Source of the DNA: Candidatus Uhrbacteria bacterium
GTDB taxonomy: Bacteria > Patescibacteriota > Patescibacteriia > UBA9934 > GWF2-40-263
NCBI GenBank assembly: GCA_037131775.1
Contig: JBAXQK010000003.1
Span: 12,439-76,438 of the forward strand
DNA: 64,000 bases
Direction: 5' to 3'
Part shown: piece after piece, positions 9,618 to 54,430 of the stretch
How positions within the stretch are numbered: the stretch's first letter is position 1
How the letters are laid out: the number at the start of each line of letters is the position of its first letter
Program-made: the position numbers and the translations under genes
Notes under the pieces: generated by a model
The model's database searches: none
Told to the model about the DNA's origin: nothing
Seen by the model: the letters and a program-made list of their open reading frames with translations, nothing else

Positions 9618-9730
9618 CGTGTGTATTCCTCTGGTTTGGTTGGGTATCGGTCCGGCCACGCCGGCCGCCGACGGTATCAAGAACGAGGCTGTTTGTCAAT
9701 CGTTACATGGGGAGAACCGTTGCGTTTGCG

Positions 9731-22146: not shown

Positions 22147-23778
22147 TTAATCCGCGCCAAAGGTGAACGTATACAAGGAAACGCCCGCCGCCGGGATCGT
22201 CAGCTCCAGCAGATGATCCCCGACGCCCGTCTCGGCACCCAGGAGCGTATAGAGCCGATCGCCGGAAATAACGACGGAGTCACGAGCGATTCCGTCGACA
22301 GATACTCCGATCGCGGTCGGGGTCGTTGCGCTCGCGACAAGATAAACCTGTTTTGCCTGGAATCGATACCTCACGAGATCATCCGACGACGTGCTTACCG
22401 CGGCATCCGAGCGTATGTTCCACGTTCCGCCAAGAACGAGCGCGCCCGACGGCACGGACGGGTTCGGGACAAACGTCTGAAGACCGGAGACCCCCTTCTT
22501 TCCGTTCGCGAGAAACGCATTGCGGCCGGATCCAAAGTACGTCTCGGGGCTGGTCGGCCCGGACGCGAAGGACGGCTCTGGCATCGACAGAACATCCGTA
22601 TCAAGACCGAGCAGCTCGCGAATCTTTGCCTCTGTCTCAGCGTCGCCCCCTTCCCCGACGTGGTCATACGCGATGTTGCCCTGGAGATCGATCAGGTATT
22701 TGCGCGGCCAGTACTTGTTGCCATACGCGTTCCATGTTCCGTAATCGTTGTCGAGGACGACGGGAAACGTGATGCCAAACCGTCGCATCGCGTCCCGGAC
22801 GTTGTCGATGTCCTTTTCGAACGAGAACTCCGGCGTGTGAATCCCGATGATCTCAAGCCCTTGGTCGCGATACTTCTTGTCCCACCCGACCAGGTACGGG
22901 AAGGTGCGGATGCAGTTGATGCAGCTGTACGTCATGAAGTCGATCAGCACGACCTTTTTGCCGATAAGCGGCCCGATCGTGATCGGATCGGAATTGACGA
23001 AGCCCGAGGGACTGGCGATCTCGTGGTAGCGCCCCAAGGAAACCGACGACGCGGGCGGCGATCGCTCAAGCAGCGATCGCTCGAGTCCCGTCACGGTCGG
23101 ATATCCGTGATTCGCGAGCCACACCTCGACGGGAACGACGCTTCCCGTCGCGACAACGAGCCCGACGACGACGAACAGCGCTCCGATTGCCTTCTTGAAC
23201 CATCCGTTCGGATCCGCAAGGAATCGGACGCGTCGAATCAACCGCTGTCCCGCGAGACTGATCGCCAGCAGCGCGGCGGACAATCCGGCGGAGTAAACGA
23301 CGAGGTAGACCGTCCCGACGAGAACGCTCTGCGGCAAGACGGTCGCGAGGATGAGAAAGTACGTCGGCGAGCAGCTGGAGAAGACCGGGCCAAGCGAGAT
23401 GCCGATGAGGACGTCGCCTGCGAACCCGGACCTCTTCGCCGAACCGTCAAGCAGGGCGTCGGCATTCTTTTGCAAGGAAAATCGCCCGCTGATCTTTTCC
23501 CATACGCTCGGAAACAGCGAGACAAGCCCGAAAGCGATCAGCATCCCGCCGGAAACGGACATCCACACCGCCTGCGGGACGGACACGAACGCGGCACTGA
23601 ACTTCAGCAGCAGCGTGAACGCGACGATCGACGCGGCAAGCGAGACCGCGATGACGAACGGGTTCCTCCGTCGCGCGTCCTGCGCCGCCCCGCCGACGAT
23701 GATCGGAAGAAGCGGGAGAACGCACGGGGCGAGGACGGTGAGGACGCCCGAGAGGAATGAGACGAGGAGCAGGCCCAT
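22147..23778 (-). CDS. Fusion: CcdA/DsbD-like transmembrane thiol-disulfide transporter + TlpA/ResA-like thioredoxin domain + C-terminal domain of unknown function
   Basis: N-terminal 6-TM domain with TM Cys (LAPCVLP, SSCSPTYF); periplasmic redoxin domain with CINC active site (YSCINCIRTFPYL); ~150-aa beta-rich tail. Confidence 0.78.
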   Translation of the reverse strand: MGLLLVSFLSGVLTVLAPCVLPLLPIIVGGAAQDARRRNPFVIAVSLAASIVAFTLLLKFSAAFVSVPQAVWMSVSGGMLIAFGLVSLFPSVWEKISGRFSLQKNADALLDGSAKRSGFAGDVLIGISLGPVFSSCSPTYFLILATVLPQSVLVGTVYLVVYSAGLSAALLAISLAGQRLIRRVRFLADPNGWFKKAIGALFVVVGLVVATGSVVPVEVWLANHGYPTVTGLERSLLERSPPASSVSLGRYHEIASPSGFVNSDPITIGPLIGKKVVLIDFMTYSCINCIRTFPYLVGWDKKYRDQGLEIIGIHTPEFSFEKDIDNVRDAMRRFGITFPVVLDNDYGTWNAYGNKYWPRKYLIDLQGNIAYDHVGEGGDAETEAKIRELLGLDTDVLSMPEPSFASGPTSPETYFGSGRNAFLANGKKGVSGLQTFVPNPSVPSGALVLGGTWNIRSDAAVSTSSDDLVRYRFQAKQVYLVASATTPTAIGVSVDGIARDSVVISGDRLYTLLGAETGVGDHLLELTIPAAGVSLYTFTFGAD

Positions 23779-26819: not shown

Positions 26820-28588
26820 TTCGCACCTTTCTCACGACGGAGAGCAGGCTCGACAGGGCAACGAATCCGGCCGCGAGAAGAACCCACGTCGGAACCGCCC
26901 GCGTCGACTCAATCCCCGTGTTTGGAAGCGACGGAACAATGCGGGCGGCCACGACGACGGTCGCGATCGCGAAGTCCCTCACGGTGAATCCGTTCGCCAA
27001 CCCGCTCGCGACGGCGGTATTCGTCGTGGTCGCGGTGAGATTCGAGCTGCAGGTGTATTTCCAGGATTCCGTCACGTCGAGGAGCGAATTGCCGTTCGTA
27101 TCGCCGGACACGATAGTTCACCGGGCTGCACTTGTCATCCGAGAGTACAACGGCACCAAGCGGGACCGTTCCCGGGTTCGTGATCGTTTCGGTATAGGTC
27201 ACCGTTCCGCCGCCGGCAGAAAGAGTCAGTGGGTTCGGAACCTTCGTGACGTGGATCAACGGCGGGACAAGCGGGACGCCGACCACGACGGTGGCGCTCG
27301 CGACGTCCACCGCGCTCAAGCCGTTGGCCCATCCGGTGGCCACGACCGTGTTCGTGTGCGTCTTCAACAGCGTCGTGGAACAGGCGTACTTCCAGGTCTC
27401 CGTGACGTCCAGCTTTGAGTCGCCGTTGGTATCGCCCGAGACGAGCACGACGGGAGAGCAGCTGTCGTCGACCATCGTCACGTTCGTCATCGGAACCGTA
27501 CCGATATTTCGGGCCGTGTACGTGTACTGGACCAGTCCGGGACCGTCCGGCAACGCCAGCGGACTCGGCACCTTTACGACATCGATAAGCGGCGGCACGG
27601 GCGGCACGGGCACGGGAGCGCCGATGTCATTGTTCGTAATGATGCAGATGGCGTTTTGTGCCGGGTTCAGGTAAACGAGGCCGTTCGCATCGCAGTCGCC
27701 GGAAAACGACGCGGCATACTTCTCGTTCGAAGTCTCGGATACCGTGTATGGGACGGCATTGTTGCTGAAGGAAAAATTGGTCGTCGATCCAGACGTGACC
27801 GCCACTCCGTTGATGAACAGCGGAAAACTGGAGACGATCGCGGTTCCGCCGTTGTCGTTGACGACGGTCTTCACGACGGTGATCGTTCCCGTGTATCCGC
27901 TTGCGCTGCTGGACGACGGAACCGAGCAAGTCGGCCCGGAAACGGCGTTGCCGGACATCGTCACCTCGGCCGTCCGCGCGAAAGCCCTTCTATCCAGGCT
28001 GGCTCCCGCCGCCATGGTGATGCTGGTATCCGCGAGGATATTTCCAACGAACGCGCTGCCCGCGCCGAACGTGGCGGTACTCACGACTCCCCACCACGCG
28101 TTGCACGCAAGCCCTCCTCCCGCGAACACCACTTGCGAGGCGGCGCCCGTGACGATCAGGTCGCTGGCCGACCTGAGGATCCAGACGTCGGCTGAATTTC
28201 CGGAAAGGGTGAGCGTTCCGTTCGTCAGGTGAAAGGAATCCGCACAGTAGACGCCGGGAGGAAGGACCTCTCCGGCCAGCTCGTGGATGCCCAATCCCGT
28301 ATAGTCCGTGCCGCCGTCGGATCCGCATCCCGGGACCGCGAGGTCCGCGTACGCGTCATTCCGATCCGCCATGGCCCCCGCCGCGATTCCGCCGCCGTCC
28401 GCGTCATACAGGATGCCCCCCATCGACGTCGACCCGGATTCGACGTAATGAGGTCCCGGGCCGATGCCCGGGCTGATGCCGATGTCGCCGCTCACCGTTG
28501 ACGCTCCGGTGTTCGTCACTTCGGATCCGGCCAGTATCGAGAACGTGGATGCCGTGCCAAGGTGTGAAATTATAACGACTTCTGCCAC
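26809..28588 (-). pseudogene. LPNTG-anchored surface protein with three DUF11-like repeats; reading frame broken by an apparent single-nt indel near 27108-27115
   Basis: Repeat 3 (…LSDDKCSPV) continues in another frame as SGDTNGNSLLDVTESWKYTCSS…IVPSLPNTG + hydrophobic stretch + RKVRNEK; the 559-aa frame ends in Arg-rich nonsense. Confidence 0.65.
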
Positions 28589-39920: not shown

Positions 39921-41000
39921 TTACTCGATGCCTCCAACGAGGGTGTAGATGGGAAGGACGACGGCGAGGGCAAGGAACAGGACGCCGACGCCCATGACGA
40001 GGAGGAGAAGCGGCTCGAGAATGACGGTGAGGTTCTTCGAGGCCACGTCGGCCTTGAACTCGTACAGCTCGCCGATGCTGAGAAAGGCCTGCGGCACGGT
40101 ACCGGACTGCGCCGCGGTAACGATGAGCTGCTGCATCGGGATGGAAAGGACCGAACTGGTCCGCTTGTAGGAGCGGAACGCCTGCTCAAACGTGCTTCCC
40201 TCCTCCAGCCGGTCGGCGAGGTATTCGAAGAACTTCGAAAACGACGCGAACGTTGACGCGCGCGCGACGGAACGGACGGACTCGATCAGGTCGACGCCGG
40301 CGCCGAGAAGGGTGCCCAGCAGGTACCCGACGCGGCCGGTTTCCGAATCAATCAGCAGGCGCCCGATCGCCGGGGTGCGAAGCAGGAAGAAATGACCGAT
40401 GAACCGCAGCGGCGGTATGACGAAGCCGACCAGAAGGACGACGGCTGCCGTCCCCAGGATGGACGGGACCAGAACGGTCCAGTGGTCGCGCGTAAACGAA
40501 CCGACGGAGATGAGCGCGCTCGTCACGAACGGCAACGGCATGTTCAGCGACGAGAAGGTGGTGGCAAGCTGCGGAAGGAGAAAAAACAGCACCCAGGATC
40601 CGACGGCCGCCCCGAGGATGATCACGAACGAGGGATAGGCCATGGCCCCGATGATCTTGGATCGGAACATGCGGTCCTTCTGCCGCTGGAGAGCGAGGAT
40701 GTGCAGGTTCTGGATGAGCCGGCCGGTCTCCTCGCCGATGCGGACGAGCGAGACGGTCTGGCTCGTGAACAGGCACGTGTTGTCCAGGGCGCGCCACACC
40801 GGGTCCCCGTTCTCCACGTCCTCGACCATCCGTCGCACGAGCTTCCGGAGTCGCCGACTCTTCGTCTCCGCGGAGATGGCATTCAGCGCGGCCAGGATGT
40901 CCATGCCGGAACTCAACAAAACCGAAAGATTGTCCACGAGATATTCCTTCTCGCTTCCAAGGCCGAACGTGTGAAAAAAGGATGCCTTCTTTTTCGGCAT
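39921..41000 (-). CDS. pilC: Type IV pilus assembly platform protein PilC (GspF family)
   Basis: 359 aa; duplicated GspF domains with 3 TM segments. Confidence 0.88.
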   Translation of the reverse strand: MPKKKASFFHTFGLGSEKEYLVDNLSVLLSSGMDILAALNAISAETKSRRLRKLVRRMVEDVENGDPVWRALDNTCLFTSQTVSLVRIGEETGRLIQNLHILALQRQKDRMFRSKIIGAMAYPSFVIILGAAVGSWVLFFLLPQLATTFSSLNMPLPFVTSALISVGSFTRDHWTVLVPSILGTAAVVLLVGFVIPPLRFIGHFFLLRTPAIGRLLIDSETGRVGYLLGTLLGAGVDLIESVRSVARASTFASFSKFFEYLADRLEEGSTFEQAFRSYKRTSSVLSIPMQQLIVTAAQSGTVPQAFLSIGELYEFKADVASKNLTVILEPLLLLVMGVGVLFLALAVVLPIYTLVGGIE

Positions 41001-41004
41001 AGGA

Positions 41005-42702
41005 TTAGGACGCTTCGGGCGGCGCGACGACGCGAAGCAGCTCGTCGATGGTGATCACGCCATTGATCACCTTGTCGACGCCGTCAAGGAACATCGGCCT
41101 GGTTCCGGACGCGACCGCGGAGGCCATCACGTCCTTGGCGCTCGGCCGGCGCATCACGAGGTCGCGCAGTTCCGGCGTGGCCTGAATGAACTCGAACACG
41201 CCGATGCGCCCCTTGTATCCGGAATTCGCGCAGGCGGAACATCCCTTGCCCTGGTAAAGCGTCACCGTGGCCCCCGGAAAGTACTTCGCCGCGTCGGGAT
41301 ACTTCTCCGCGAGCTGCGCCTGGCTCATTTCCGTGCCATAGCGGCAGGTCTCGCACGTCTTGCGGGCTAGGCGCTGGGCCACGATCAGCTCGACGGTAGA
41401 TGACAGCAGGAACGGCTCCACGCCCATGTCCACCAGGCGCGGAATGGCCGAGGCGGCGTCGTTGGCATGGAAGGTCGTGAGCAGCATGTGGCCGGTCAGC
41501 GCGGCGTTGACCGCGATCTCGGCGGTCTCCTGGTCGCGTACCTCTCCCACGAGGATGATGTCCGGGTCCTGGCGCACGATGGACCGAAGGCCCTTGGAAA
41601 AGGTCAGGTTGGTCTGGAGGTTCACCTGGATGTGGTTCACGCCCATGATCTTGTACTCGACCGGGTCCTCGATGGTGGAAATGTTCACGTCGGGGCGGTT
41701 CAAGAACTTCACGGCCGCGTACAGCGTCGTGGTCTTTCCCGATCCGGTCGGCCCGATCACGAGGATCATCCCGAACGGCTTCTCCGCCGAGGCGGTGAGC
41801 TGTCGCTGCAGCGCCGGCGAAAGACCGAGGTCCGTGAGCTGATATCCGCGCATGTACTCCGACAGGAGGCGCATGACGATCTTCTCGCCGTCCACGAGCG
41901 GAACGACGGAGACGCGAACGTCCACGACCTGGTTGGCGAGATGGTAACGGATGGCCCCGTCCTGCGCCGAATAGTGCTCGTCGGTTCGGAGATGCGCCTG
42001 CACCTTGACGCGGTTCAGAACGTTTTCGTACAGCTCCTTGCTCAGGCGGCCGGCCTCCTCGAGCAGGCCGTCCACGCGGAACCGGATCAGCACGTCCTTC
42101 TCGCGCGGCTCGAAATGGATGTCGGACGCGCGAAACGTGACCGCGTCGAGCATGATCTCGTCCACCACTTCCGGGGCCACCTTTCCCTTCTCCGCCACGA
42201 TCTTCGCGAAGCGCGTATCCAATGCCTTGCGGTAGTGCGCGAACGCCGCCTCCAGGTCTTCCGGAAGCGTATATGCCAGATTGACGGTCTTTCCTGGGAA
42301 ATGCGAGCGAAAATCGTCCGTCATCTCAATCTGCGGGCGGTCGGTCGCGATGATCACCTCCGTCGGCGCGTCGCGAAAAATCACGCGCCGGTCGCGACGC
42401 GCGAACTCCTCCGGGATGCGCAGCACCTCCTCCTTGGTGGGAGGGTGCGAATTGAGGTCGGCGTACGGAACGCCGTAGTGCTCGGCGATCGCCTGGCCGA
42501 ACAGGTCCTTGGTGATGATGCCCGACGAGAAGAGCGCGTCGAGCGAATCGGCGCTCGTCGCCTTTGCCTCCGCTTCCACCTTCGCGAGCGCGTCGGCGGT
42601 CAGGTAGCTCTCCTCGACGAGAATTTCCTGCCACGTCTTTTGAGGCGCCGGCGCCGCGGCGGGGACGACCTCATTTTTTTTCCTCCTCAGTAACATATGC
42701 AT
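41005..42702 (-). CDS. pilB: Type IV pilus assembly ATPase PilB (GspE family)
   Basis: Walker A GPTGSGKTTTLYA, Asp box, His box, tetracysteine CETCRYG...CSAC. Confidence 0.92.
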   Translation of the reverse strand: MHMLLRRKKNEVVPAAAPAPQKTWQEILVEESYLTADALAKVEAEAKATSADSLDALFSSGIITKDLFGQAIAEHYGVPYADLNSHPPTKEEVLRIPEEFARRDRRVIFRDAPTEVIIATDRPQIEMTDDFRSHFPGKTVNLAYTLPEDLEAAFAHYRKALDTRFAKIVAEKGKVAPEVVDEIMLDAVTFRASDIHFEPREKDVLIRFRVDGLLEEAGRLSKELYENVLNRVKVQAHLRTDEHYSAQDGAIRYHLANQVVDVRVSVVPLVDGEKIVMRLLSEYMRGYQLTDLGLSPALQRQLTASAEKPFGMILVIGPTGSGKTTTLYAAVKFLNRPDVNISTIEDPVEYKIMGVNHIQVNLQTNLTFSKGLRSIVRQDPDIILVGEVRDQETAEIAVNAALTGHMLLTTFHANDAASAIPRLVDMGVEPFLLSSTVELIVAQRLARKTCETCRYGTEMSQAQLAEKYPDAAKYFPGATVTLYQGKGCSACANSGYKGRIGVFEFIQATPELRDLVMRRPSAKDVMASAVASGTRPMFLDGVDKVINGVITIDELLRVVAPPEAS

Positions 42703-42703
42703 T

Positions 42704-42714
42704 CAGTATAGCAC
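42704..42714 (-). promoter_or_regulatory. Extended -10 element GTGCTATACTG on the minus strand, 2 nt from the pilB ATG (leaderless-type arrangement)
   Basis: Part of an 11-bp inverted repeat with the pilA promoter element at 42757-42767. Confidence 0.4.
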
Positions 42715-42756
42715 ACCGCGCCTTATCCACACGAGCTTCGTTCTGCGATTTGACGT

Positions 42757-42767
42757 TCCGTGCTATA
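42757..42767 (+). promoter_or_regulatory. Extended -10 element GTGCTATACTG for pilA (with TTGACG upstream)
   Basis: About 30 nt upstream of the pilA ATG; same motif recurs at 43748, 45869, 47307 and 14056 on the minus strand. Confidence 0.45.
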
Positions 42768-42797
42768 CTGGAACCAATAATTTATAAATCGTAACGT

Positions 42798-43286
42798 ATG
42801 CAAAAGAAAAATACGCAGGGCTTCACGCTCATCGAGCTTCTCATCGTCATCGCGATCATCGCGATCCTCGCCGCCGTCGTCTTCGTCGCCCTCGACCCGA
42901 GCAGCCGCTTCAAGAAGGCACGCGACGCCCGCCGCCAGACCGACGTGCAAAGCATCGCCGGCGCCATCGTCACCTACCAGGTGGATAACGACGGAAGCCT
43001 TCCGTCCGCCGTCAGCGCCCTGACCGCCGGAAGCGCGTACATCGTGGGAACGGCCACCTCCGGCTGCAACACCGGCTGTACGGCCACCACGACACAGGCG
43101 TCCTGCGTGGACCTTACCGCGCTCCAGACCGGCGGCTACCTGGGCAGCGTTCCGGTCGATCCGACGGGCGGAGTAACGGCCACCGCCGCGCACACCATGT
43201 ACTACATCATCAAGAATTCCACCGGAACCCTGACCGCCGGAGCCTGCATCCCGGAACTCGCCTCCTCGGTCAACGTTACGCGCTAA
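42798..43286 (+). CDS. pilA: Type IV major pilin (PilA-like; leader MQKKNTQG|FTLIELLIVIAIIAILAA)
   Basis: Canonical prepilin N-terminus; 162 aa; C-terminal Cys pair. Confidence 0.88.
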   Translation: MQKKNTQGFTLIELLIVIAIIAILAAVVFVALDPSSRFKKARDARRQTDVQSIAGAIVTYQVDNDGSLPSAVSALTAGSAYIVGTATSGCNTGCTATTTQASCVDLTALQTGGYLGSVPVDPTGGVTATAAHTMYYIIKNSTGTLTAGACIPELASSVNVTR

Positions 43287-43296
43287 GCAGGAAAAC

Positions 43297-43335
43297 AAAA
43301 ACTCCCGGCCTCGATCATCGAGGCCGGGAGTTTTA
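43297..43335. terminator. Bidirectional rho-independent terminator (actcccggcctcga-tca-tcgaggccgggagt)
   Basis: 14-bp stem flanked by A5 and T4; between convergent pilA and the receiver gene. Confidence 0.65.
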
Positions 43336-43341
43336 TGTTCC

Positions 43342-43725
43342 CTAGGGATTTTCCGCGAGGACTTCCTTGACCATGTTCGCCAGGTCGTCGATGGAAATCT
43401 CCGTCTTGATCAGGAACTTGGTCGCCCCGAGCTTTTCGCACTGCACGCGGTCCTCGTCCTGGCCGAGGTTGGTCATGACCACGATCGGCACGCCCGCGAG
43501 CGACTTTTCCTTCGCGGCCTTGCGGAGGAATTCCAGACCGTCCATTCCCGGCATGATGATGTCGAGCAGGATCAGGTCCGGCATCTGCTCGCGGATCCGA
43601 ACGAATGCCTCCTTCCCGTCCGAGGCCGACGCGACGTCGTACCCCTCCGAGAGCAGCTTGGCCTGGTAGATCGCCTGGATATCGACGTTGTCCTCGGTGA
43701 TAAGGATGTGCGCTTTTGTTGGCAT
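43342..43725 (-). CDS. Stand-alone response regulator receiver
   Basis: MPTKAHILITEDNVDIQAIY...LLDIIMPGMDG...; ORF-track N-extension rejected. Confidence 0.82.
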   Translation of the reverse strand: MPTKAHILITEDNVDIQAIYQAKLLSEGYDVASASDGKEAFVRIREQMPDLILLDIIMPGMDGLEFLRKAAKEKSLAGVPIVVMTNLGQDEDRVQCEKLGATKFLIKTEISIDDLANMVKEVLAENP

Positions 43726-43747
43726 AGGATGATGAGATATCGGATCC

Positions 43748-43758
43748 AGTATAGCACA
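43748..43758 (-). promoter_or_regulatory. Extended -10 element TGTGCTATACT (minus strand) about 23 nt upstream of the receiver ATG
   Basis: Same motif as the pilA/pilB promoters. Confidence 0.4.
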
Positions 43759-43772
43759 GATTCGCAAAGACG

Positions 43773-44771
43773 TTAGTGGGATACGGCGGAGATGGTCACG
43801 GAACCCGTGCAGGTTCCGGAGACGCCTGAGTCCGGGATGGAAATATTCCAATAGATAGGCTCGGACGGAACGGTCGCGCCATGGCGGTATCCGACGCCCA
43901 GAGGAACGATGGACGGAACGGCGGTCAGCGAAACCGATCCGGAACCTCCGTAATGGTTCGGCACGACGGACCACTGCTGGCGTCTGCTCGGGACGGCGCC
44001 GATCCCGCCGTTATGGACGCAATCCATGGTTCCTCCATACCCGGGCGCCCCGGGCGCCGTCGAGTACGAAACTTCCGCGTCCGATTCGTCGTTCCCCTCC
44101 TGGGAGATGACATGGGCGAACTCATTCGTTTCGTCGGTGGATTCTCCGACCGAAAGGATTCCATAGTTGACGGAGTTGGGAACATGAAGCGCCAAGAGCG
44201 TCTGGATCTCGCGAGTAAGCGACGCGTTTGTCGCCTGCGCGCCCGCGCGGTCGAAGACGGTGACGCTTGCGACCCAGTGATCGTCTGGAAACTCACCGCC
44301 GGCAACCGTACTGTCCGCGAAGTACCAAAGGTCCAGCGGACAGCTGTACCGACGCTGCAGACTCGTTACACCGTCCGATGACAGCTCGCAATCAAAGACC
44401 TTGTAACAGTCATTCCCGTCATTTTCGACGCAACCGCCCGCGCCGGCGACGCCGGACCGGTAAAATACCGAGTCCACATGATCGATCTGGTCGCCCGAGT
44501 TGTTATCCTGAACGACGCCGTTCAGGTAAACGGTCTTCGTGCCGCCAGGCACGAGACTATTGATCCCACCGGAATATTCTTCCGATCCAAACGCGGAATT
44601 GCTGAGGCGGACGGAGGAAACGAACGGGGGCGCGTTTGCAAGAAGGATCGACGTGCCGACTGTTTGAGCCTCGGAATCCGTTTGGACGAGCAGCAATGCC
44701 GCCAGACCGCAAAGAACGAGAATGGCAGAGCCGAAAGCGACGGTGCGAAACGGAAAGATGTTCGGGCTCAT
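43773..44771 (-). CDS. Secreted Cys-containing protein, paralog family member 2 (ends GTCTGSVTISAVSH)
   Basis: Signal peptide; family blocks TKTVYLNG, FYRSG, CxxxxxDC, YSCPLDLWYFADS, NYGILSVG. Confidence 0.72.
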   Translation of the reverse strand: MSPNIFPFRTVAFGSAILVLCGLAALLLVQTDSEAQTVGTSILLANAPPFVSSVRLSNSAFGSEEYSGGINSLVPGGTKTVYLNGVVQDNNSGDQIDHVDSVFYRSGVAGAGGCVENDGNDCYKVFDCELSSDGVTSLQRRYSCPLDLWYFADSTVAGGEFPDDHWVASVTVFDRAGAQATNASLTREIQTLLALHVPNSVNYGILSVGESTDETNEFAHVISQEGNDESDAEVSYSTAPGAPGYGGTMDCVHNGGIGAVPSRRQQWSVVPNHYGGSGSVSLTAVPSIVPLGVGYRHGATVPSEPIYWNISIPDSGVSGTCTGSVTISAVSH

Positions 44772-47353: not shown

Positions 47354-48718
47354 TTACCATCGGCGTTCCGCATCGGAAGGGATCGGCGCGTCAGGAATCT
47401 TCTCCGCGGGCGGCACGGCGGCCGAACGGACCTCCGTCACGACGGGCGACGGCGACTGTTCCGTCGGACGAGCCTTCGCCGTCGCCTCCTTTCCATGACG
47501 CCGACGGCGAACGATGACGATCAGAAGGACGAAAAGGAGGATGACGACGGAAAGAACTCCGATTCCCACGTATGAGTTGAGCGTCTTCAACGCCACGGCC
47601 TCGTTGACCGTAAGAACAACATCTTTTGACAGCGTCTTCTTGTTGCCAAACTTCACGTAGGTAGTCAGCGAGTACCGACCTGGATCCTTCGGATCAAGCA
47701 GGAGGGAAAGATTGGAGGATTCCCCCGGTCCGACGGAAACTTCCTCGCCGCGAATCAGGTCGACATACGCCCCGTCCTTGTACAGCTCCCCCATCAGCAG
47801 TCCGCTGATGACGATATCGCCGGTGTTGGAAAAGACCGCGTCGACCGGCACCTTCTCGCCGAGCTCAAACGAATCCTTCTTTGTCGAAACGGACACAAGC
47901 TCTCCGGACTGGGCCATGGTTCCCGGGGCGAACACGTTGAAGTCGAAGGACGTCAGCTCGCCGATCTGCTCCTTCTGCTCATTGAAGAACTTCGTCGTCA
48001 GGGAGTACGTGCCTTCCGGAAGACTCCGGTCGAGTTCGATCCGAACGTTGCCTTCCTTGCCCGGGCCAACGGAATCGAACTTGTCTGATTCCAACGAGTA
48101 GAGGATCTGGTCGGACGGATCGTTCTTGTTCGAGAACGCAAGCTCGGCACGGTACGGCTTCCAGTTGACGTTACCGGTATTCGCGAAGACGTACGTGACA
48201 AACGGATGGAGGTTTGACTCCGTGTCATCGACATGCGACGTCCTGATTTCAAAGGAGACAAGTTCCTTTCCGCTCACGGCAAAGTTTATTTCCAGCGCCA
48301 CCCCGGTAAGGACACCCATTCCCATCTGATCCCCGGTGGCCGCTCCACCCGCACCCACGCGCGAGTTCATGAACGACAGGACGCCCTTGTGGGAACCGGA
48401 CTGGGCAATGCCGGGATCGACCTGAAACGTATAGTCAATTCCGTCCATGCCGCTTGGAATAATGGCGGCCGGCTCAAATCTCAGATATTCCGCGGCGTCT
48501 CCAACGGCCAGGATATTCAGCTTCAGTTCCCCTTCCTGATCCGAACTCCGAAGGAGATGGACGGTGACGTTCTGCGGAATCCCCCGCATGACGTCTGGAA
48601 TTATGACCGACGACGGCGAGAGTCCGAGCGCAAGCGCGGGATGCGCGACCAGCAGGGCCATGGCGCACGCGAACGAAGCCGCGAGACTATTTTTGAGCAA
48701 GGAACGAGTCTTTGGCAT
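47354..48718 (-). CDS. Cell-surface protein, type I membrane topology (signal peptide, GLSP N-domain, C-terminal TM + RRRRH), paralog 1 of 3
   Basis: 454 aa; N-terminus LALGLSPSSVIIPDV shared with 49590 and 50498 proteins; C-terminal TM and basic stop-transfer. Confidence 0.68.
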   Translation of the reverse strand: MPKTRSLLKNSLAASFACAMALLVAHPALALGLSPSSVIIPDVMRGIPQNVTVHLLRSSDQEGELKLNILAVGDAAEYLRFEPAAIIPSGMDGIDYTFQVDPGIAQSGSHKGVLSFMNSRVGAGGAATGDQMGMGVLTGVALEINFAVSGKELVSFEIRTSHVDDTESNLHPFVTYVFANTGNVNWKPYRAELAFSNKNDPSDQILYSLESDKFDSVGPGKEGNVRIELDRSLPEGTYSLTTKFFNEQKEQIGELTSFDFNVFAPGTMAQSGELVSVSTKKDSFELGEKVPVDAVFSNTGDIVISGLLMGELYKDGAYVDLIRGEEVSVGPGESSNLSLLLDPKDPGRYSLTTYVKFGNKKTLSKDVVLTVNEAVALKTLNSYVGIGVLSVVILLFVLLIVIVRRRRHGKEATAKARPTEQSPSPVVTEVRSAAVPPAEKIPDAPIPSDAERRW

Positions 48719-49076: not shown

Positions 49077-49616
49077 GTGAGAATAGTATATCATGATTCC
49101 AATACTATGCTGCTCTCTTACCTGTGGAAAACATTTCGGCTCGCATCGTGTGCTGTCCTGATTATCCTGTTCGTGAGAACGTTCGTGATCGAGACGGGAC
49201 GCGTAAACGGCGTCTCCATGGAGAGCACGTATCTGGACAGCCAGACATTTTACATCAATAAATTTGCGCTGCTGCTTTCCACGCCGAAGCGCGGACAGAT
49301 CATTCAGTGCAAGGCTCCGAACGGCGAGTCGCTCCTCATCAAGCGCATCGTCGGGCTTCCGGGAGAAACCGTGCACATTCACGAGAACGAGGTCTCTATC
49401 ACGGACAGCCGGGGAAACCTGATCCGTCTAAACGAGACGTACCTGAAGCCGGGGTCCATCACGCAGACCTGGAACCACGAGCCCGGGGACTACCCGGTCC
49501 TTGGTCCGAACGAGTACTTCGTCATGGGGGACAACCGCCGGGAGAGCGGCGACTCTAGGCACTTCGGCCCCGTCCCGAGAGAAAACATCCTAGGGTTGGT
49601 TATCTCTCCGTTTTAA
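49077..49616 (+). CDS. lepB: Signal peptidase I (LepB-type Ser/Lys)
   Basis: Box B GVSMEST, box D IKRIVGLPGETV, box E VMGDNRRESGDSRHFGPV; start could alternatively be the Met at 49107. Confidence 0.85.
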   Translation: MRIVYHDSNTMLLSYLWKTFRLASCAVLIILFVRTFVIETGRVNGVSMESTYLDSQTFYINKFALLLSTPKRGQIIQCKAPNGESLLIKRIVGLPGETVHIHENEVSITDSRGNLIRLNETYLKPGSITQTWNHEPGDYPVLGPNEYFVMGDNRRESGDSRHFGPVPRENILGLVISPF

Positions 49617-50501
49617 CGCACGGCGCCGTCGAAACGTGCCGCCGAACGCGGCCAGGATGACGGCGGCAAGCGCCCCCGACGTCAGCACGACGAGCCGCTT
49701 TCGAAGCGTCGGCTGCAAAACCCAGAATGAGACGTCCTTTGTTACGCCGCCCACGGAAACCTCTGCCGTATATTTTCCCGACGGGAAGGATTCCGACAGG
49801 TCGAAGTCATAGGATTGCACGCTGGCCCCGCCAACGGGAATGTCGTCGGAGAGAAGGTATGTCTGGGCATTCACCGGCACCCCGTCCTTCGACACCACCA
49901 CGTGACTCTCGACCCCTTCGATCGGATTTTGACCCGCATTGACCAGGTCCCACGCCACGTGAAGGCGACGGCCGTTTCGAAGGGACGACTGGGTCACCCG
50001 CGGCACGCGAACGGAAATGTCCTTCATCAGCGTCGGATAATCGACGGCGCTCAGGACCACGTTCGATCCTGGACGATCCTGCACGGACAGGTGCACCTGA
50101 AACATGAGCCCCGCGATCACCTGTTGGCCACTGGCGGCCTGGTCACCGGGTGGGTCGAGGAGAAACTGAATCGTTTCGTCATATTCTCCCACGGGCAGAT
50201 CCAAGGAGCTGACCGTAAAGCGAAACGGGACAAAGTGCTCGCCGTCCGGAATGGTCACGCTCGCTGTACCGCCGATATCGATTGCGGCGGACTTCGTCAG
50301 TTCGGAGACATGAAACACCGACTCCCCCTCGGCATCCTGACGCGAAATCATAATTTCCTCCGTCAGCGTGTCGCCGCGATACACCACCAGGTTCATCTCT
50401 CCCGGAGAGAGGCCGATTGTCTGCGCGGCGGACGATGGCGGGACCAGCACGAACATGCCTAGCAAAACGAGGACGGAGAGGAACGGAAGGCGGAATGTCA
50501 T
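49590..50501 (-). CDS. Cell-surface protein paralog 2 of 3 (signal peptide, IGLSPGEMNLVV N-domain, C-terminal TM + RRRR)
   Basis: 303 aa; 3' end overlaps the lepB 3' end convergently (27 nt). Confidence 0.68.
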   Translation of the reverse strand: MTFRLPFLSVLVLLGMFVLVPPSSAAQTIGLSPGEMNLVVYRGDTLTEEIMISRQDAEGESVFHVSELTKSAAIDIGGTASVTIPDGEHFVPFRFTVSSLDLPVGEYDETIQFLLDPPGDQAASGQQVIAGLMFQVHLSVQDRPGSNVVLSAVDYPTLMKDISVRVPRVTQSSLRNGRRLHVAWDLVNAGQNPIEGVESHVVVSKDGVPVNAQTYLLSDDIPVGGASVQSYDFDLSESFPSGKYTAEVSVGGVTKDVSFWVLQPTLRKRLVVLTSGALAAVILAAFGGTFRRRRALKRRDNQP

Positions 50502-52123
50502 ACAGGATCAATTTCAGGGTGAACGATCGATTCGTCTTCCTCCTCGTTCTTTCCTCGTGAGAACGCGAGCGCGACGATGGCGATGGCGGCCAGAAAAAAC
50601 GAGAGGACAAGCATCAGGCAGATGGGGAATTTTTTCTTCGTCAGGCACGGGCAGACCGTCATCAGGGACGCCTGTTCCGGTGCGGCAGGAACGCTGGCCG
50701 CGACGAGGAAGCGACCGGAGAGGTCTTCTGTCCGAACCGCGTCCGATACCCGCATCTGTCCGTTTACCGAATCCACGCCACCAAACTCCAGCGAGGTCGT
50801 TGCCTCCCGCTTCGGACGGAACTGGAACGCGGCGACATATCCGCGCGTCCCGGAGAAAGCGACGTCCGACGCGCCAATGAGGCGAATGGAACCGGCGCCC
50901 GCCTTTCCGTATTCCCCTCGGACGTACGGAAAGATGGACCCGAGCGTGCTGACGTCAACGAGATCGAGGACGTCCGTGTCGTACCGGAATGTGACGTCAG
51001 CCGCACGGACGCCGGACGGGCCCGTGTCGGCAAGAAGATAGAACGTCACGAGATCGTCGGGCGTCTTCTCGGCGGCCGCGAGCACGAACTCGTATTTGCC
51101 CAGAGCGCCCCCCTCCTCGAAGTAGAAAGTTTCCTGCTCGGTCGCAAGCGCCGGACCGGGCGTCACGGGAGGAACGGACGGTGCCGCATCCTTCGGGGCG
51201 CCAACGAGCTCGGCGGCCGCCGCGATATCCAGCAGGGTGAACGCGCAATCCGCGTTCAGGTCGCACGTCAGCGCGCAGGTCGCGCCAAGATACTCGCTCA
51301 TGAGAGTCGTGACGTCGGCCGAGCCCTGGATTCCATCGCCGTTCCGGTCGAGCGAAAATCCAGCGTTATCGCATGCCGCTCCGGAGGCAGGCGCTCCTTC
51401 CTGCGATACCGAGCCTGTCGGCCCCGCGGGAGTGACAGTCGGGACAACGACGGGAGCCTGCGATACGGACGGCGTTCCCGTCGTATCCGTGAAACCCGTG
51501 TCACTGCCGAACGATCCGGACGAACCAGTGTCCGCGGGAGTCTGCGCAATGGATCCGCCGGTGCCATCCGTCGTTGTGGTGTTCGTCGACGGGGTCGTGG
51601 GAGTGGTCGTTGGCGTCGACGGGGTCGGTTCCTGCGTGATCCCGCCGCCACCGCCGCCCGTCGGGTTTCCACCTCCGGACCCCCGCGCCCTGACGGAAAA
51701 CCTTACCGTCGCCGTTACGCCGCGTTGAACGGCGTTGCCGGACCCGTCGCCGGAACCGGAAACGTCCGTCAGAAGGAACGCGATGTACTGCCGGTAATCC
51801 CCTGTCTCAATGTCCGCGCCAGGCGAGACGACGAACTTGTATTCCACCGCGTCTTGGTCCGGCCCCATCACGATCGTATTTTCTCCCGTGACGCATCCGC
51901 CGCATTCCCCGTGAAATCCAACCTCGAAGACCAGCGCGCCGACTTCCCCGTCCCCGCGCTGAAGCCCGACCGTCTCGCGGACGGAGGAAGAGGAGGACAG
52001 CGTCCGGGAAACCGTGACCTCCGGCGGGGAGAGGCCGAACGCGAAGGACGGATGCGCAGACGCAAAAAACGAACTGGCGACAAGGAAAATTACGGCGGCT
52101 AACTTTTGATGAAACGGGCGCAT
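50498..52123 (-). CDS. Cell-surface protein paralog 3 of 3 with Thr/Pro-rich linker, dockerin-like double repeat, cohesin-like C-domain and C-terminal TM
   Basis: FGLSPPEVTVS N-domain; TPSTPTTTPTTPSTNTTTT linker; DRNGDGIQGSADVTTLMSEYLG + DLNADCAFTLLDIAAAAELVG; cohesin-like VTFRYDTDVLDLVDV...; ATGA overlap with the paralog 2 start. Confidence 0.72.
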   Translation of the reverse strand: MRPFHQKLAAVIFLVASSFFASAHPSFAFGLSPPEVTVSRTLSSSSSVRETVGLQRGDGEVGALVFEVGFHGECGGCVTGENTIVMGPDQDAVEYKFVVSPGADIETGDYRQYIAFLLTDVSGSGDGSGNAVQRGVTATVRFSVRARGSGGGNPTGGGGGGITQEPTPSTPTTTPTTPSTNTTTTDGTGGSIAQTPADTGSSGSFGSDTGFTDTTGTPSVSQAPVVVPTVTPAGPTGSVSQEGAPASGAACDNAGFSLDRNGDGIQGSADVTTLMSEYLGATCALTCDLNADCAFTLLDIAAAAELVGAPKDAAPSVPPVTPGPALATEQETFYFEEGGALGKYEFVLAAAEKTPDDLVTFYLLADTGPSGVRAADVTFRYDTDVLDLVDVSTLGSIFPYVRGEYGKAGAGSIRLIGASDVAFSGTRGYVAAFQFRPKREATTSLEFGGVDSVNGQMRVSDAVRTEDLSGRFLVAASVPAAPEQASLMTVCPCLTKKKFPICLMLVLSFFLAAIAIVALAFSRGKNEEEDESIVHPEIDPV

Positions 52124-52139
52124 ATCCGACGCAAGTATA

Positions 52140-52862
52140 TCACATTTTCCTTGCGTCCCTCAGCTTCCTGCGCAAAATCCAGAGATGCTTGAAGTTATCC
52201 CAGGCGGTTGCAAAAATTTTCACCGACGTCTTCCTCCTCGCGTCGCGTCCTTCCTCCCAACGCACGGGAATGTTCGCCACGACGAACCCGCAACGCTCGG
52301 CATGGGCAAGAATCTCCGTGTCGAAAAAGAATCCTTCGTGCGTCCAGAGGGGAAAAAGTACCTGTGCCGCGTCTCGCCGGACCGCCTTGAATCCGCACTG
52401 CAGGTCCTGCGCGGAGATGGAAACCAGGACGCGCGCGATCAGCCGATACACCCGCGAAACGATTCGGCGGGACAGCGACCGTCTCACGACGGAATCGCGA
52501 TGAAACCTGGACCCCGCCGCAACCCCGCGTCGCGTCGCCCCGTCGATAAGCGCGGGGACGTCCCGCAGGTCGGTCGCCAAATCCGCGTCCATGAACGCGT
52601 ACACGTCGGCATCCCGTGACTTCCACGCCTCTCGGATCGCGAGCCCCTTCCCTTTTTGCTGGAGAGGAAACAATCCGACGCGGGAATGGTCGCAGGCGAC
52701 GGACCGGACGATCTCGCACGTCCGGTCAACGGACCCGTTGTCCGCAACCAAAATCATCCAGTCGTAGTCCCTCAGCAAGCCGTCAAACGCAGCGACGGAC
52801 TGACGCAGGCTGTTCTCGATCACCAGCTCCTCGTTGTACGCGGGAATGACCATCAGCACCTT
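52140..52862 (-). CDS. GT2-family glycosyltransferase, polyprenol-phosphate sugar synthase-like (DPM1/Ppm-like)
   Basis: MKVLMVIPAYNEE..., DAD motif (FMDADLATD), QxxRW-like region; start at the internal Met 52862. Confidence 0.82.
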   Translation of the reverse strand, partial: KVLMVIPAYNEELVIENSLRQSVAAFDGLLRDYDWMILVADNGSVDRTCEIVRSVACDHSRVGLFPLQQKGKGLAIREAWKSRDADVYAFMDADLATDLRDVPALIDGATRRGVAAGSRFHRDSVVRRSLSRRIVSRVYRLIARVLVSISAQDLQCGFKAVRRDAAQVLFPLWTHEGFFFDTEILAHAERCGFVVANIPVRWEEGRDARRKTSVKIFATAWDNFKHLWILRRKLRDARKM

Positions 52863-54430
52863 CATAGCGTTGAAATTGGAGTGTAAATCTGCGACCACTC
52901 GTCCTCGTACGCCTTTTCATACTGTCCGGACTCCTCCGCGTGAGCGCCGATCGGAGAGGGGTTGCGACGATCGATCAGGATGGCCGACGCGTGAAAGACC
53001 GAGCGGATTTTTTCCACCTCCTTGTCGTCGCCGTTGCACAGCGCATACCAGACGCGATACTTCTCGCTGTCATTCTCATACATGAGACGCGGATCCAGTC
53101 CGACGAGAAGGTACTGTGCGTCATCCAGGTAGAAGTACATCATCGATGAGTCCCATTGCGTATTGAAGACGATCGCGCCAGGCGGGAGGTTCGACCGGAG
53201 CCAGTCCGCGCTTCCGCGGTAACGCGCCTCGGTGAACACGCCGCCCTTCTCAATGGAGTGACTGACGCCACGAATAAAGAGCATCGCCCCAACAGACAGG
53301 CAGGCAATCGCGACGACCGCGTATGATTGCCATCGGAAGCGCGAGGCCGTCCGATTTCCACGGAGATCTTTTTTCAACTGAATGATCCCCTGCCGCAAGT
53401 ACGGCCAGACCATTGACAGGACCGCGCCGGCGGACAGAATGACGAGGGGGACGAAGTACTCCGCATATCGCATCGACCGCAGCGCGAAGACGAAAAAGAA
53501 CGTCGCAAAGAGCGTGAGCGTGAGCGCCGAACGAACGCGAGCCGGCGAGCGGTCGAGGAGCGAGGACGCTTTTGCGGGAAGGAGGAGTGCCGTGCCGACA
53601 AACGCGCAGATGAGGACCGGCATGTTCACAAGCACGAGCAGGATCCAGCTTCCGGCCTTCCACTCTACGCCGGCGGGGATCTCATGCGACCCGTCGATCC
53701 CGATTTTCACGCTGTCCGCGACGCTTGAAAGAACGTTCGTCGGGAAATACGGACTGACGACGAGACCGACCGCAATCCCGACGGCGAGCGCGATGCCCGT
53801 CTTCAGAGCGTCGTACCGCGCAAGGGGATCGTCTTCGCCCGGTCGCGCAATGCGACGCGCGGCAGCATCCGCGATCACGAAACAAAAATACCCCACGAGA
53901 ACGATCGGCCAGCCGTGATAGAGCCAGACAAAGGCCGCCAACGCGACAACCAGCGTCTTGCGGCGAGATGTCAGCATCGCCCAGATGCAGAACAATAGGA
54001 AAACGACGGAAAGGGACGGCGCTCGCGGCATGGATACCCTTTGCAGAAAGTCGAATGAGAACGCGGTGGCAAACGTCAGCCATTCCGGATACGGGGAGCC
54101 GATCGATTTTAAAAATCGATAAATCGCATAGAACGCCAGCAACCCGAATACAACGGCCGATTCCTTCATCCCAACGATCGGGTCGAACAGCGTCACGAAC
54201 GGGATCAGCAAAACGTGATAGAGCAGATGCACGTCCACGTACTGGTCGCGCCAGGTCGTTTCCTGCAGCCATGGAAACGAGTGGATGAACCCATGGTCCC
54301 GTATCGTGAGCGCCATCTTGGCGTGATAAAACGAGTCCGCGTCCGGAAACGACGGCCGCGCATTGATGGCAACGAGCATCACGGCGATCGTGGCAAAGAC
54401 GAATATTGTGGACCAGGAGGGTCGATGCAT
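52862..54430 (-). CDS. GT-C-fold polytopic membrane glycosyltransferase (PMT/ArnT-like), tentative
   Basis: 522 aa with >10 TM segments and N-terminal DxD-like loop (FPDADSFYH); stop overlaps the GT2 start. Confidence 0.65.
   Translation of the reverse strand: MHRPSWSTIFVFATIAVMLVAINARPSFPDADSFYHAKMALTIRDHGFIHSFPWLQETTWRDQYVDVHLLYHVLLIPFVTLFDPIVGMKESAVVFGLLAFYAIYRFLKSIGSPYPEWLTFATAFSFDFLQRVSMPRAPSLSVVFLLFCIWAMLTSRRKTLVVALAAFVWLYHGWPIVLVGYFCFVIADAAARRIARPGEDDPLARYDALKTGIALAVGIAVGLVVSPYFPTNVLSSVADSVKIGIDGSHEIPAGVEWKAGSWILLVLVNMPVLICAFVGTALLLPAKASSLLDRSPARVRSALTLTLFATFFFVFALRSMRYAEYFVPLVILSAGAVLSMVWPYLRQGIIQLKKDLRGNRTASRFRWQSYAVVAIACLSVGAMLFIRGVSHSIEKGGVFTEARYRGSADWLRSNLPPGAIVFNTQWDSSMMYFYLDDAQYLLVGLDPRLMYENDSEKYRVWYALCNGDDKEVEKIRSVFHASAILIDRRNPSPIGAHAEESGQYEKAYEDEWSQIYTPISTL

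Follow-up and report, generated by a model that had tools for sequence, protein, structure and literature searches.

A predicted membrane-anchored surface protein of Candidatus Uhrbacteria with a divergent dockerin and a divergent cohesin-like domain

The 64,000-nt stretch of Candidatus Uhrbacteria DNA analyzed here (assembly GCA_037131775.1, contig JBAXQK010000003.1, positions 12,439-76,438, forward strand; hereafter the window) encodes a 541-residue protein in which, judging from profile searches and structural models, a divergent dockerin is followed by a divergent type-I-like cohesin and then by a C-terminal membrane anchor. We interpret this as a non-cellulosomal cohesin-dockerin protein of the Uhrbacteria cell surface that would engage in Ca2+-dependent docking between copies of itself, a statement to which, taken whole, we assign a probability of about 0.5; the self-binding step considered by itself is held with less confidence than the statement as a whole. 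An initial annotation, made from the DNA sequence, had proposed a dockerin-like double repeat and, tentatively, a cohesin-like domain within one membrane-anchored polypeptide at 50683-51352. This range corresponds to residues 258-481, and all peptides quoted in that annotation, as well as the hydrophobic C-terminal segment, map to a single open reading frame (ORF):

50498..52123, minus strand: whole gene, a single ORF of 541 aa plus stop codon, encoding the predicted type I membrane-anchored surface protein with dockerin and cohesin.

The product is 100% identical to the NCBI entry 'MAG: hypothetical protein WCO25_02140 [Candidatus Uhrbacteria bacterium]', and full-length homologues (43-90% identity) share an identical start position; on these grounds we regard the ORF as genuine. 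From N to C terminus, the protein consists of a signal peptide, a beta-sandwich head, a stalk, the dockerin, a Pro-rich linker, the cohesin, a CxC..C motif, a transmembrane helix and a short tail.

A dockerin segment was taken to be about 22 residues long, with a 12-residue Ca2+ loop (D at position 1, N/D at 3, D/N at 5, D/E at 12) followed by a helix, and with two such segments in tandem. The window protein contains two segments of this form:

51194..51373, minus strand: dockerin, residues 251-310, with two Ca-loop and helix segments, a CxxxC (C283, C287) between them and a C251/C293 pair.
51314..51349, minus strand: Ca-binding loop 1, DRNGDGIQGSAD, residues 259-270, with D1, N3, D5 and D12 all present.
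51227..51262, minus strand: Ca-binding loop 2, DLNADCAFTLLD, residues 288-299, carrying D1, N3, D5 and D12, with Cys for the usual Gly at position 6.

A predicted helix follows DRNGDGIQGSAD (259-270) and another follows DLNADCAFTLLD (288-299), and the corresponding longer peptides are DRNGDGIQGSADVTTLMSEYLG (residues 259-280, window positions 51284-51349) and DLNADCAFTLLDIAAAAELVG (residues 288-308, window positions 51200-51262). In 200,000 shuffles of the protein, two matches to the Ca-loop motif appeared with a frequency of 3.5e-5, and a pair of motifs 20-45 residues apart appeared in none (0/200,000); a chance origin of the double motif is excluded. A loose form of the motif occurs eight times in the six-frame ORFs of the window (96,658 residues), with seven of these occurrences lying outside the target protein and distributed across four other ORFs.

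Comparison with the Pfam family Dockerin_1 (PF00404; curated cut-off 22.9 bits), as proposed with the initial annotation, gave a divided answer: neither the window protein nor the isolated segment was matched at E<=10, and three relatives with which the window protein aligns in register exceed the cut-off (P0003, 28.5 bits; P0004, 28.1 bits; P0021, 37.3 bits). A generic dockerin profile, for which 314 dockerin segments were drawn from diverse proteins, matched the window protein at 39.4 bits (E=3.6e-11, profile positions 2-54), and Bacteroidales dockerins, serving as a positive control, were recovered by it at 1e-13 to 1e-16; this profile is partly circular and not fully independent, since its seeds were found with the target family's own profile. 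When the dockerin family profile was compared with the PDB, the dockerin chain 6kg9 was matched at 1.1e-7 and the EF-hand protein CaBP1 at 2.8e-7. EF-hand proteins thus score nearly as well as dockerins, and sequence alone cannot tell them apart.

The predicted structure separates the two folds. The AlphaFold2 (AF2) model of residues 253-310 has a predicted local distance difference test score (pLDDT) of 91.9 and a predicted template modeling score (pTM) of 0.76, and is laid out as coil, helix, short turn, coil and helix, with the helices at 268-279 and 297-307. By DSSP, a stretch of 15 residues that takes in loop 1 and the approach to it is coil, and loop 2 is preceded by a helix of just three residues, so the model lacks the entering helix that precedes each Ca loop of an EF-hand pair. 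In a Foldseek search of the PDB with this model, 30 of the 32 matches were dockerin chains (query-normalized TM-score 0.54-0.68, root-mean-square deviation 2.2-4.3 A) and none was an EF-hand protein; the short length of the domain, 58 residues, accounts for the weak E-values (0.33 or more). EF-hand models of Pfam matched the relatives weakly, far under their cut-offs. An EF-hand identity was accordingly dropped, given the loop-helix rather than helix-loop-helix arrangement and the fold matches. An unusually short loop spacing had also been suspected and was likewise discarded: among 220 diverse dockerin segments spacings of 26-34 residues are common, and the spacing of 29 seen here falls within this range as the second commonest value. 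Taken together, the scores of the relatives, the generic profile match and the fold matches bear out the proposed dockerin, even with Pfam silent on the protein itself, and on these profile and model grounds residues 251-310 are a genuine, divergent dockerin whose binding of Ca2+ and of a cohesin is putative.

The region downstream of the dockerin, for which the initial annotation had tentatively suggested a cohesin, was examined in the same way:

50684..51133, minus strand: cohesin-like beta-sandwich, residues 331-480, near threshold in Pfam (PF00963) and with cohesin matches by PDB profile and fold.

This region includes the peptides DVTFRYDTDVLDLVDVSTLGSIFPYV (residues 376-401) and IRLIGASDVAFSGTRGYVAAFQF (residues 413-435). 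Pfam Cohesin (PF00963) detects residues 348-445 at 24.0 bits (E=4.8e-5), missing the gathering cut-off of 24.1 by 0.1 bits, and other family members score 20.7-22.5 bits; that the family falls just under this threshold probably explains its "hypothetical" annotation. The family profile has 10 matches in the PDB, every one of them a cohesin (best value 6.3e-4). AF2 places nine strands over residues 346-474, and the top Foldseek matches are type I cohesins, led by 2vn6_A (3.6e-6, target-normalized TM-score 0.59) and followed by 2vn5, 5nrm, 1g1k and 4dh2, with target-normalized TM-scores of 0.57-0.64 for these top matches in a full-length model of moderate confidence (mean pLDDT 54). The non-cellulosomal cohesin 2xdh of Archaeoglobus fulgidus is also among the matches (E=3.8e-4). 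The tentative cohesin assignment is thereby strengthened, and the structure prediction called for at the time returns both a dockerin-like fold (253-310) and a cohesin-like sandwich. Profiles and models indicate that residues 331-480 are a genuine, divergent type-I-like cohesin, with dockerin binding putative, and that the two modules do reside in one 541-aa polypeptide as first proposed.

An exhaustive profile search (E<=1e-3) retrieved 606 proteins, of which those with the same ~500-aa architecture form about 20 clusters at 50% identity. Across these clusters the dockerin and cohesin are co-inherited in unchanged order with a conserved linker; the named members are all Candidatus Uhrbacteria or "Patescibacteria group". 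A search for related loci with the family sub-alignment recovered only three Uhrbacteria species, plus unrelated Bacteroidales dockerins. Overall identity in the family is only 20-50%, yet the second Ca loop and its helix, along with the cohesin core motifs FYLLxDTGPSG and GTxGY, are strongly conserved. In a 21-member alignment, D288 (position 1) and D299 (position 12) of loop 2 are invariant (21/21), position 3 is N or D in 21/21 and position 5 is D or N in 19/21, and the full ligand set of loop 1 is retained in 13/21. The second loop and helix appear to be the constrained half of the dockerin, which suggests one dominant binding orientation rather than a symmetric dual mode.

The more distant profile matches have either a dockerin or a cohesin alone. 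In numerous proteins from metagenomes, 240-335 aa in length, a signal peptide is followed by a single cohesin-like domain, a linker, a transmembrane helix and a basic tail (for example P0073, P0077, P0096, P0106, P0137, P0086, P0113, P0124 and P0132), and in P0080 a C-terminal dockerin comes after a cohesin. It appears that single cohesins with a membrane anchor are widespread in uncultivated bacteria and mostly unannotated.

The remaining parts of the protein are as follows:

52040..52123, minus strand: signal peptide, residues 1-28, judged by inspection, with likely cleavage after S-F-A28.
51686..52039, minus strand: N-terminal beta-sandwich head, residues 29-146, with a CxxC (C74, C77) and AF2 strands over 34-143.
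51380..51685, minus strand: low-complexity stalk, residues 147-248 (102 residues), AF2 pLDDT <50.
51134..51193, minus strand: Pro-rich linker, residues 311-330, consensus PPVxPGPPLxxD, AF2 pLDDT low.
50618..50653, minus strand: juxtamembrane cysteine motif CPCLTKKKFPIC, residues 491-502, CxC..C.
50561..50629, minus strand: transmembrane helix, hydrophobic core 499-521, AF2 helix 498-530.
50501..50560, minus strand: short tail, predicted to be cytoplasmic, residues 522-541 (20 residues), with R/K directly after the transmembrane helix.

The signal peptide has a basic n-region ahead of a hydrophobic core and a c-region of small residues, and AF2 predicts a helix over residues 2-21; in the family, A28 hardly varies, and the 'xGLSPP' of the mature N-terminus is conserved. 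At the other end, the transmembrane segment reaches a maximum Kyte-Doolittle value of 3.02 and contains the sole 19-residue window above 1.6 in the protein, in agreement with the C-terminal membrane anchor of the initial annotation. These features point to export via the signal peptide and to a type I topology with one C-terminal helix in the cytoplasmic membrane, so that the order outward from the membrane would be cysteine motif, cohesin, linker, dockerin and stalk, with the distal head at the tip.

The head gave no Pfam match and nothing significant in a profile search against PDB sequences. Its fold matches, in the Foldseek list of the moderate-confidence full-length model, are only PapD-like and major sperm protein (MSP) domains (2e6j, 2os7 and VAP MSP); we infer from alignment lengths that these matches belong to the head. 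The stalk is 72% Thr, Ser, Pro and Gly, and its length and sequence differ across the family. In the linker, P319 is nearly invariant in the 21-member alignment, and G322, P323 and L325 are invariant in the six closest members (numbering of the 540-residue sequence without Met1). C491, C493 and C502 are found together in most family members, and the cysteines co-vary across the 21 members as the sets C74/C77, C283/C287, C251/C293 and C491/C493/C502, with C251/C293 restricted to the three members that have Cys for Gly at position 6 of loop 2. Such a pattern points to disulfide bracing or to metal sites. The window also has a DsbD-TM/thioredoxin fusion gene, at 22147..23778 (minus strand).

Potential docking partners and cellulolytic genes were sought around the locus. 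Searches with family-specific as well as generic profiles covered the 64-kb window, a further ~13 kb of flank (taken from a second contig with identical genes) and the 6-22-kb neighborhoods of four other Uhrbacteria assemblies, and turned up neither another dockerin nor another cohesin; Pfam scans of the larger window ORFs likewise revealed none. The search for further dockerin proteins that had been suggested for the whole genome therefore yielded none within the ~75 kb of the source genome formed by the window and flank. No glycoside hydrolase or carbohydrate-binding module was matched by Pfam in the scanned window ORFs, all neighbors of the target included, in keeping with the placement of this protein outside any cellulolytic context by the initial annotation. 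No dockerin-tagged glycoside hydrolase or multi-cohesin scaffoldin, of the kind that marks a cellulosome or amylosome, turned up in these scans of the window and flank.

The initial annotation had suggested surface scaffolding that may assemble itself or recruit partners. In the arrangement we favor, Ca2+ would fold the dockerin, as in characterized dockerins, and the dockerin would then plug into a cohesin, most likely the one on a neighboring copy of the same protein. Copies linked head to tail in this manner would give surface chains or patches whose distal heads face outward. The lack of a nearby partner favors self-docking, although this is suggestive only. Several observations weigh against our interpretation. 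The cohesin scores marginally below the Pfam gathering threshold in every member tested (20.7-24.0 versus 24.1 bits), and its AF2 model is only moderately confident (pLDDT 52-79). Loop 1 has decayed in 8 of the 21 members, and therefore some of the dockerins may be weakened. Of a genome probably close to 1 Mb in size, the partner scan covered ~75 kb, so that partners may be located elsewhere, and the many small metagenomic proteins that have a single cohesin besides a signal peptide and a transmembrane helix could be alternative partners. Such partners would be expected if the protein acted as a one-cohesin adaptor scaffoldin, its membrane-proximal cohesin capturing dockerin-tagged secreted proteins and its dockerin plugging into a different cohesin anchor. 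We consider this possible but less likely. Such a scheme is the usual one for adaptor scaffoldins and for the dockerin/cohesin proteins of anaerobic methanotrophic (ANME) archaea (PMC9012536); the profile search returned many of the 240-335-aa proteins just mentioned and many dockerin-only proteins from uncultivated organisms; and a dockerin-domain envelope protein is essential in Southlakia epibionticum, a cultivated Patescibacterium of the Saccharibacteria (PMC10633639). However, the window, its added flanks and the syntenic loci in the four other Uhrbacteria assemblies showed no partner gene, the dockerin and cohesin are always co-inherited in the family, and no single-module match could be assigned to Uhrbacteria, though the naming of these matches gave almost no taxonomy.

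It is also conceivable, if rather improbable, that the modules no longer dock, the dockerin having become a Ca2+-stabilized, disulfide-braced spacer or a Ca sensor and the cohesin a structural or glycan-binding immunoglobulin (Ig)-type domain, with the head as the working part of the protein. The sub-threshold Pfam score of the cohesin, the degenerate loop 1 of eight members and the near-equal profile matches to CaBP1 and 6kg9 would all fit such a decay, as would the fact that it is the head that is common to three adjacent paralogues. Against this stands the strong conservation of loop 2, its helix and the cohesin core in a family of such low overall identity, which argues for selection on more than a spacer role, and both folds match docking-competent type I modules. 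A misidentification of both modules, with an ordinary EF-hand pair or a chance motif lying beside a generic Ig-like domain, strikes us as very improbable indeed: it would account for the silence of Dockerin_1 on the protein and for the weak EF-hand matches in some relatives, but it is contradicted by the missing entering helix before loop 1 and the three-residue helix before loop 2, by a fold list of 30 dockerins and zero EF-hand proteins, by the relatives that exceed the Pfam dockerin cut-off, by the absence of the motif pair from all shuffles, and by PDB profile matches of the sandwich that are all to cohesins.

The gene lies in a locus whose order is conserved in two other Uhrbacteria species, running from an STT3-like membrane protein through a family 2 glycosyltransferase (GT2), the target, a 303-aa paralogue, signal peptidase I (on the opposite strand), a 113-aa gene and a 454-aa paralogue to, beyond these, a response regulator, a pilin, PilB and PilC. 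In the window these are:

52862..54430, minus strand: hydrophobic membrane protein of 522 aa, weakly similar to the oligosaccharyltransferase STT3; syntenic.
52140..52898, minus strand: GT2 glycosyltransferase immediately upstream of the target (PF00535, 2.1e-18); syntenic.
49590..50501, minus strand: 303-aa paralogous surface protein sharing the target's N-domain and carrying an Ig-like domain, a transmembrane helix and an RRRR tail; syntenic.
49077..49616, plus strand: signal peptidase I (PF10502, E=1.8e-35); orthologues of 169 aa at the equivalent position.
47354..48718, minus strand: 454-aa paralogous surface protein sharing the target's N-domain and carrying Ig/CARDB-like repeats and a transmembrane helix; syntenic.
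43342..43974: response regulator, with the pilus genes.
39921..41000 (PilC-like), 41005..42702 (PilB-like) and 42798..43286 (pilin), plus strand: type IV pilus genes, conserved in other Uhrbacteria.

The start of the 303-aa paralogue overlaps the stop codon of the target by 4 nt. Head homology to the target was detected in both paralogues (303-aa, E=1.2e-9; 454-aa, E=6.8e-9), and the three adjacent proteins have in common a ~115-aa N-terminal beta-sandwich right after the signal peptide and end in a transmembrane helix and a basic tail. The gene for signal peptidase I is convergent with that of the 303-aa paralogue, and the two overlap at the 3' end of the latter; the listed GTG start of the peptidase gene is only 14 nt from the divergent 113-aa gene, and as the peptidase orthologues have 169 aa, the ATG at 49107 is probably the true start. 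The pilus set and response regulator are situated ~7-10 kb downstream of the surface-protein cluster (span 39921..43298), and the three ORFs of 332-380 aa between the pilus genes and the cluster had no family match.

The GT2 protein resembles polyprenyl-phosphate sugar synthases, with sub-threshold NCBIfam similarity to ArnC, AglJ, PgfS and PpgS. The hydrophobic, probably polytopic 522-aa protein has neither a Pfam nor a PDB match and aligns with TIGR04154 at E=6.2e-6 (24.8 bits, far under the cut-off of 450). This pair may carry out lipid-linked glycosylation of the Thr/Ser/Pro-rich stalks of the neighboring surface proteins. More speculatively, and with a low probability in our estimation, a Patescibacteria-specific self-docking protein, its two head paralogues and the glycosyltransferase-like pair would together build a Ca2+-dependent, glycosylated surface lattice or attachment organelle with which these ultra-small cells grip a host or each other; the type IV pilus genes adjoin the locus.

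Elsewhere in the window, a 541-aa protein at 8055..9680 (minus strand) has five MopE-type putative metal-binding repeats (PF11617, E=7.6e-43) and accounts for three of the seven Ca-loop motif matches outside the target protein. In a 559-aa protein at 26909..28588 (minus strand), probably another surface protein, an ice-binding-like domain (PF11999, 1.2e-37) occurs together with DUF7507 and a prealbumin-fold domain of the SpaA-like type. The other ORFs scanned with Pfam have mostly housekeeping or envelope functions or no match, and include MurG, FtsW, MraY, CTP synthase, BipA, RsgA, UvrD and YceG.

Cells of the candidate phyla radiation (CPR), or Patescibacteria, are thought to live attached to other cells; their surface biology is almost uncharted, and the present family has been annotated only as "hypothetical protein". 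Its recognition as a membrane-anchored dockerin and cohesin raises a concrete question, namely whether the dockerin binds its own cohesin with Ca2+, and the conserved locus, with its glycosyltransferase-like pair, three paralogous surface proteins, signal peptidase and pilus genes, offers an entry to the organization of the Uhrbacteria envelope. A divergent, compact dockerin-cohesin pair could also serve as an orthogonal docking pair in protein engineering. What is new here is the family and its architecture: a transmembrane anchor, a dockerin N-terminal to the cohesin, a shared head on a stalk, cysteine motifs, unequal Ca loops and the Uhrbacteria setting. The modules themselves are canonical, and the principle is not new, since non-cellulosomal cohesin and dockerin proteins, including ones with both modules, have been described before; the finding should be useful for CPR surface biology and is unlikely to surprise a specialist.

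A comparison with known systems shows both shared and distinctive features. Cellulosomal type I pairs provide the best fold matches for both modules (2vn5 and 2vn6, Clostridium cellulolyticum CipC/Cel5A; 1ohz, Clostridium thermocellum; 6kg9 and 6kgf, Clostridium acetobutylicum), and their dockerins share with that of Uhrbacteria the duplicated Ca loop and helix, the 29-residue spacing lying within the usual 26-34. Unlike these pairs, the Uhrbacteria protein is found in a non-cellulolytic context, its cohesin falls under the Pfam threshold, its two repeats are unequally conserved, and its dockerin has a CxxxC between the repeats and Cys for Gly at position 6 of loop 2. It is also anchored by a transmembrane helix, in contrast to the domains of S-layer homology (SLH) type or the sortase used in cellulosomes. 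Archaeoglobus fulgidus has a cohesin and a dockerin on one polypeptide and, like the Uhrbacteria bacterium, is non-cellulolytic, and its cohesin 2xdh is among our fold matches; this likeness is at the level of the fold, and the A. fulgidus protein differs in being archaeal, hyperthermophilic and accompanied by other domains. No transmembrane-anchored architecture with signal peptide, head and stalk is known from A. fulgidus.

A direct experimental precedent for self-docking is Amy4 of Ruminococcus bromii, whose dockerin was shown to recognize its own cohesin, allowing self-aggregation (PMC4611034); a passage of the same source cites A. fulgidus as a similar case with likely multimerization. 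Amy4 resembles the Uhrbacteria protein in bearing a cohesin and a dockerin on one polypeptide. Unlike the latter, which has no catalytic module, Amy4 is a 1,356-aa secreted GH13 amylase from a Firmicute that degrades polysaccharide, and it reaches the cell via another scaffoldin (Sca2), whereas the Uhrbacteria protein has a transmembrane helix of its own. Non-cellulosomal cohesin and dockerin modules occur in all three domains of life according to Peer et al. 2009 as cited in PMC9012536, and the ANME archaeal dockerin/cohesin proteins have been proposed to organize the extracellular space or mediate cell-cell contact (PMC9012536). The ANME proteins and the Saccharibacterial envelope protein are, like the Uhrbacteria protein, dockerin/cohesin proteins of uncultivated or epibiotic microbes; compared by architecture, they differ from it in having several cohesins, ABC (ATP-binding cassette)-transporter substrate-binding domains or S-layer domains.

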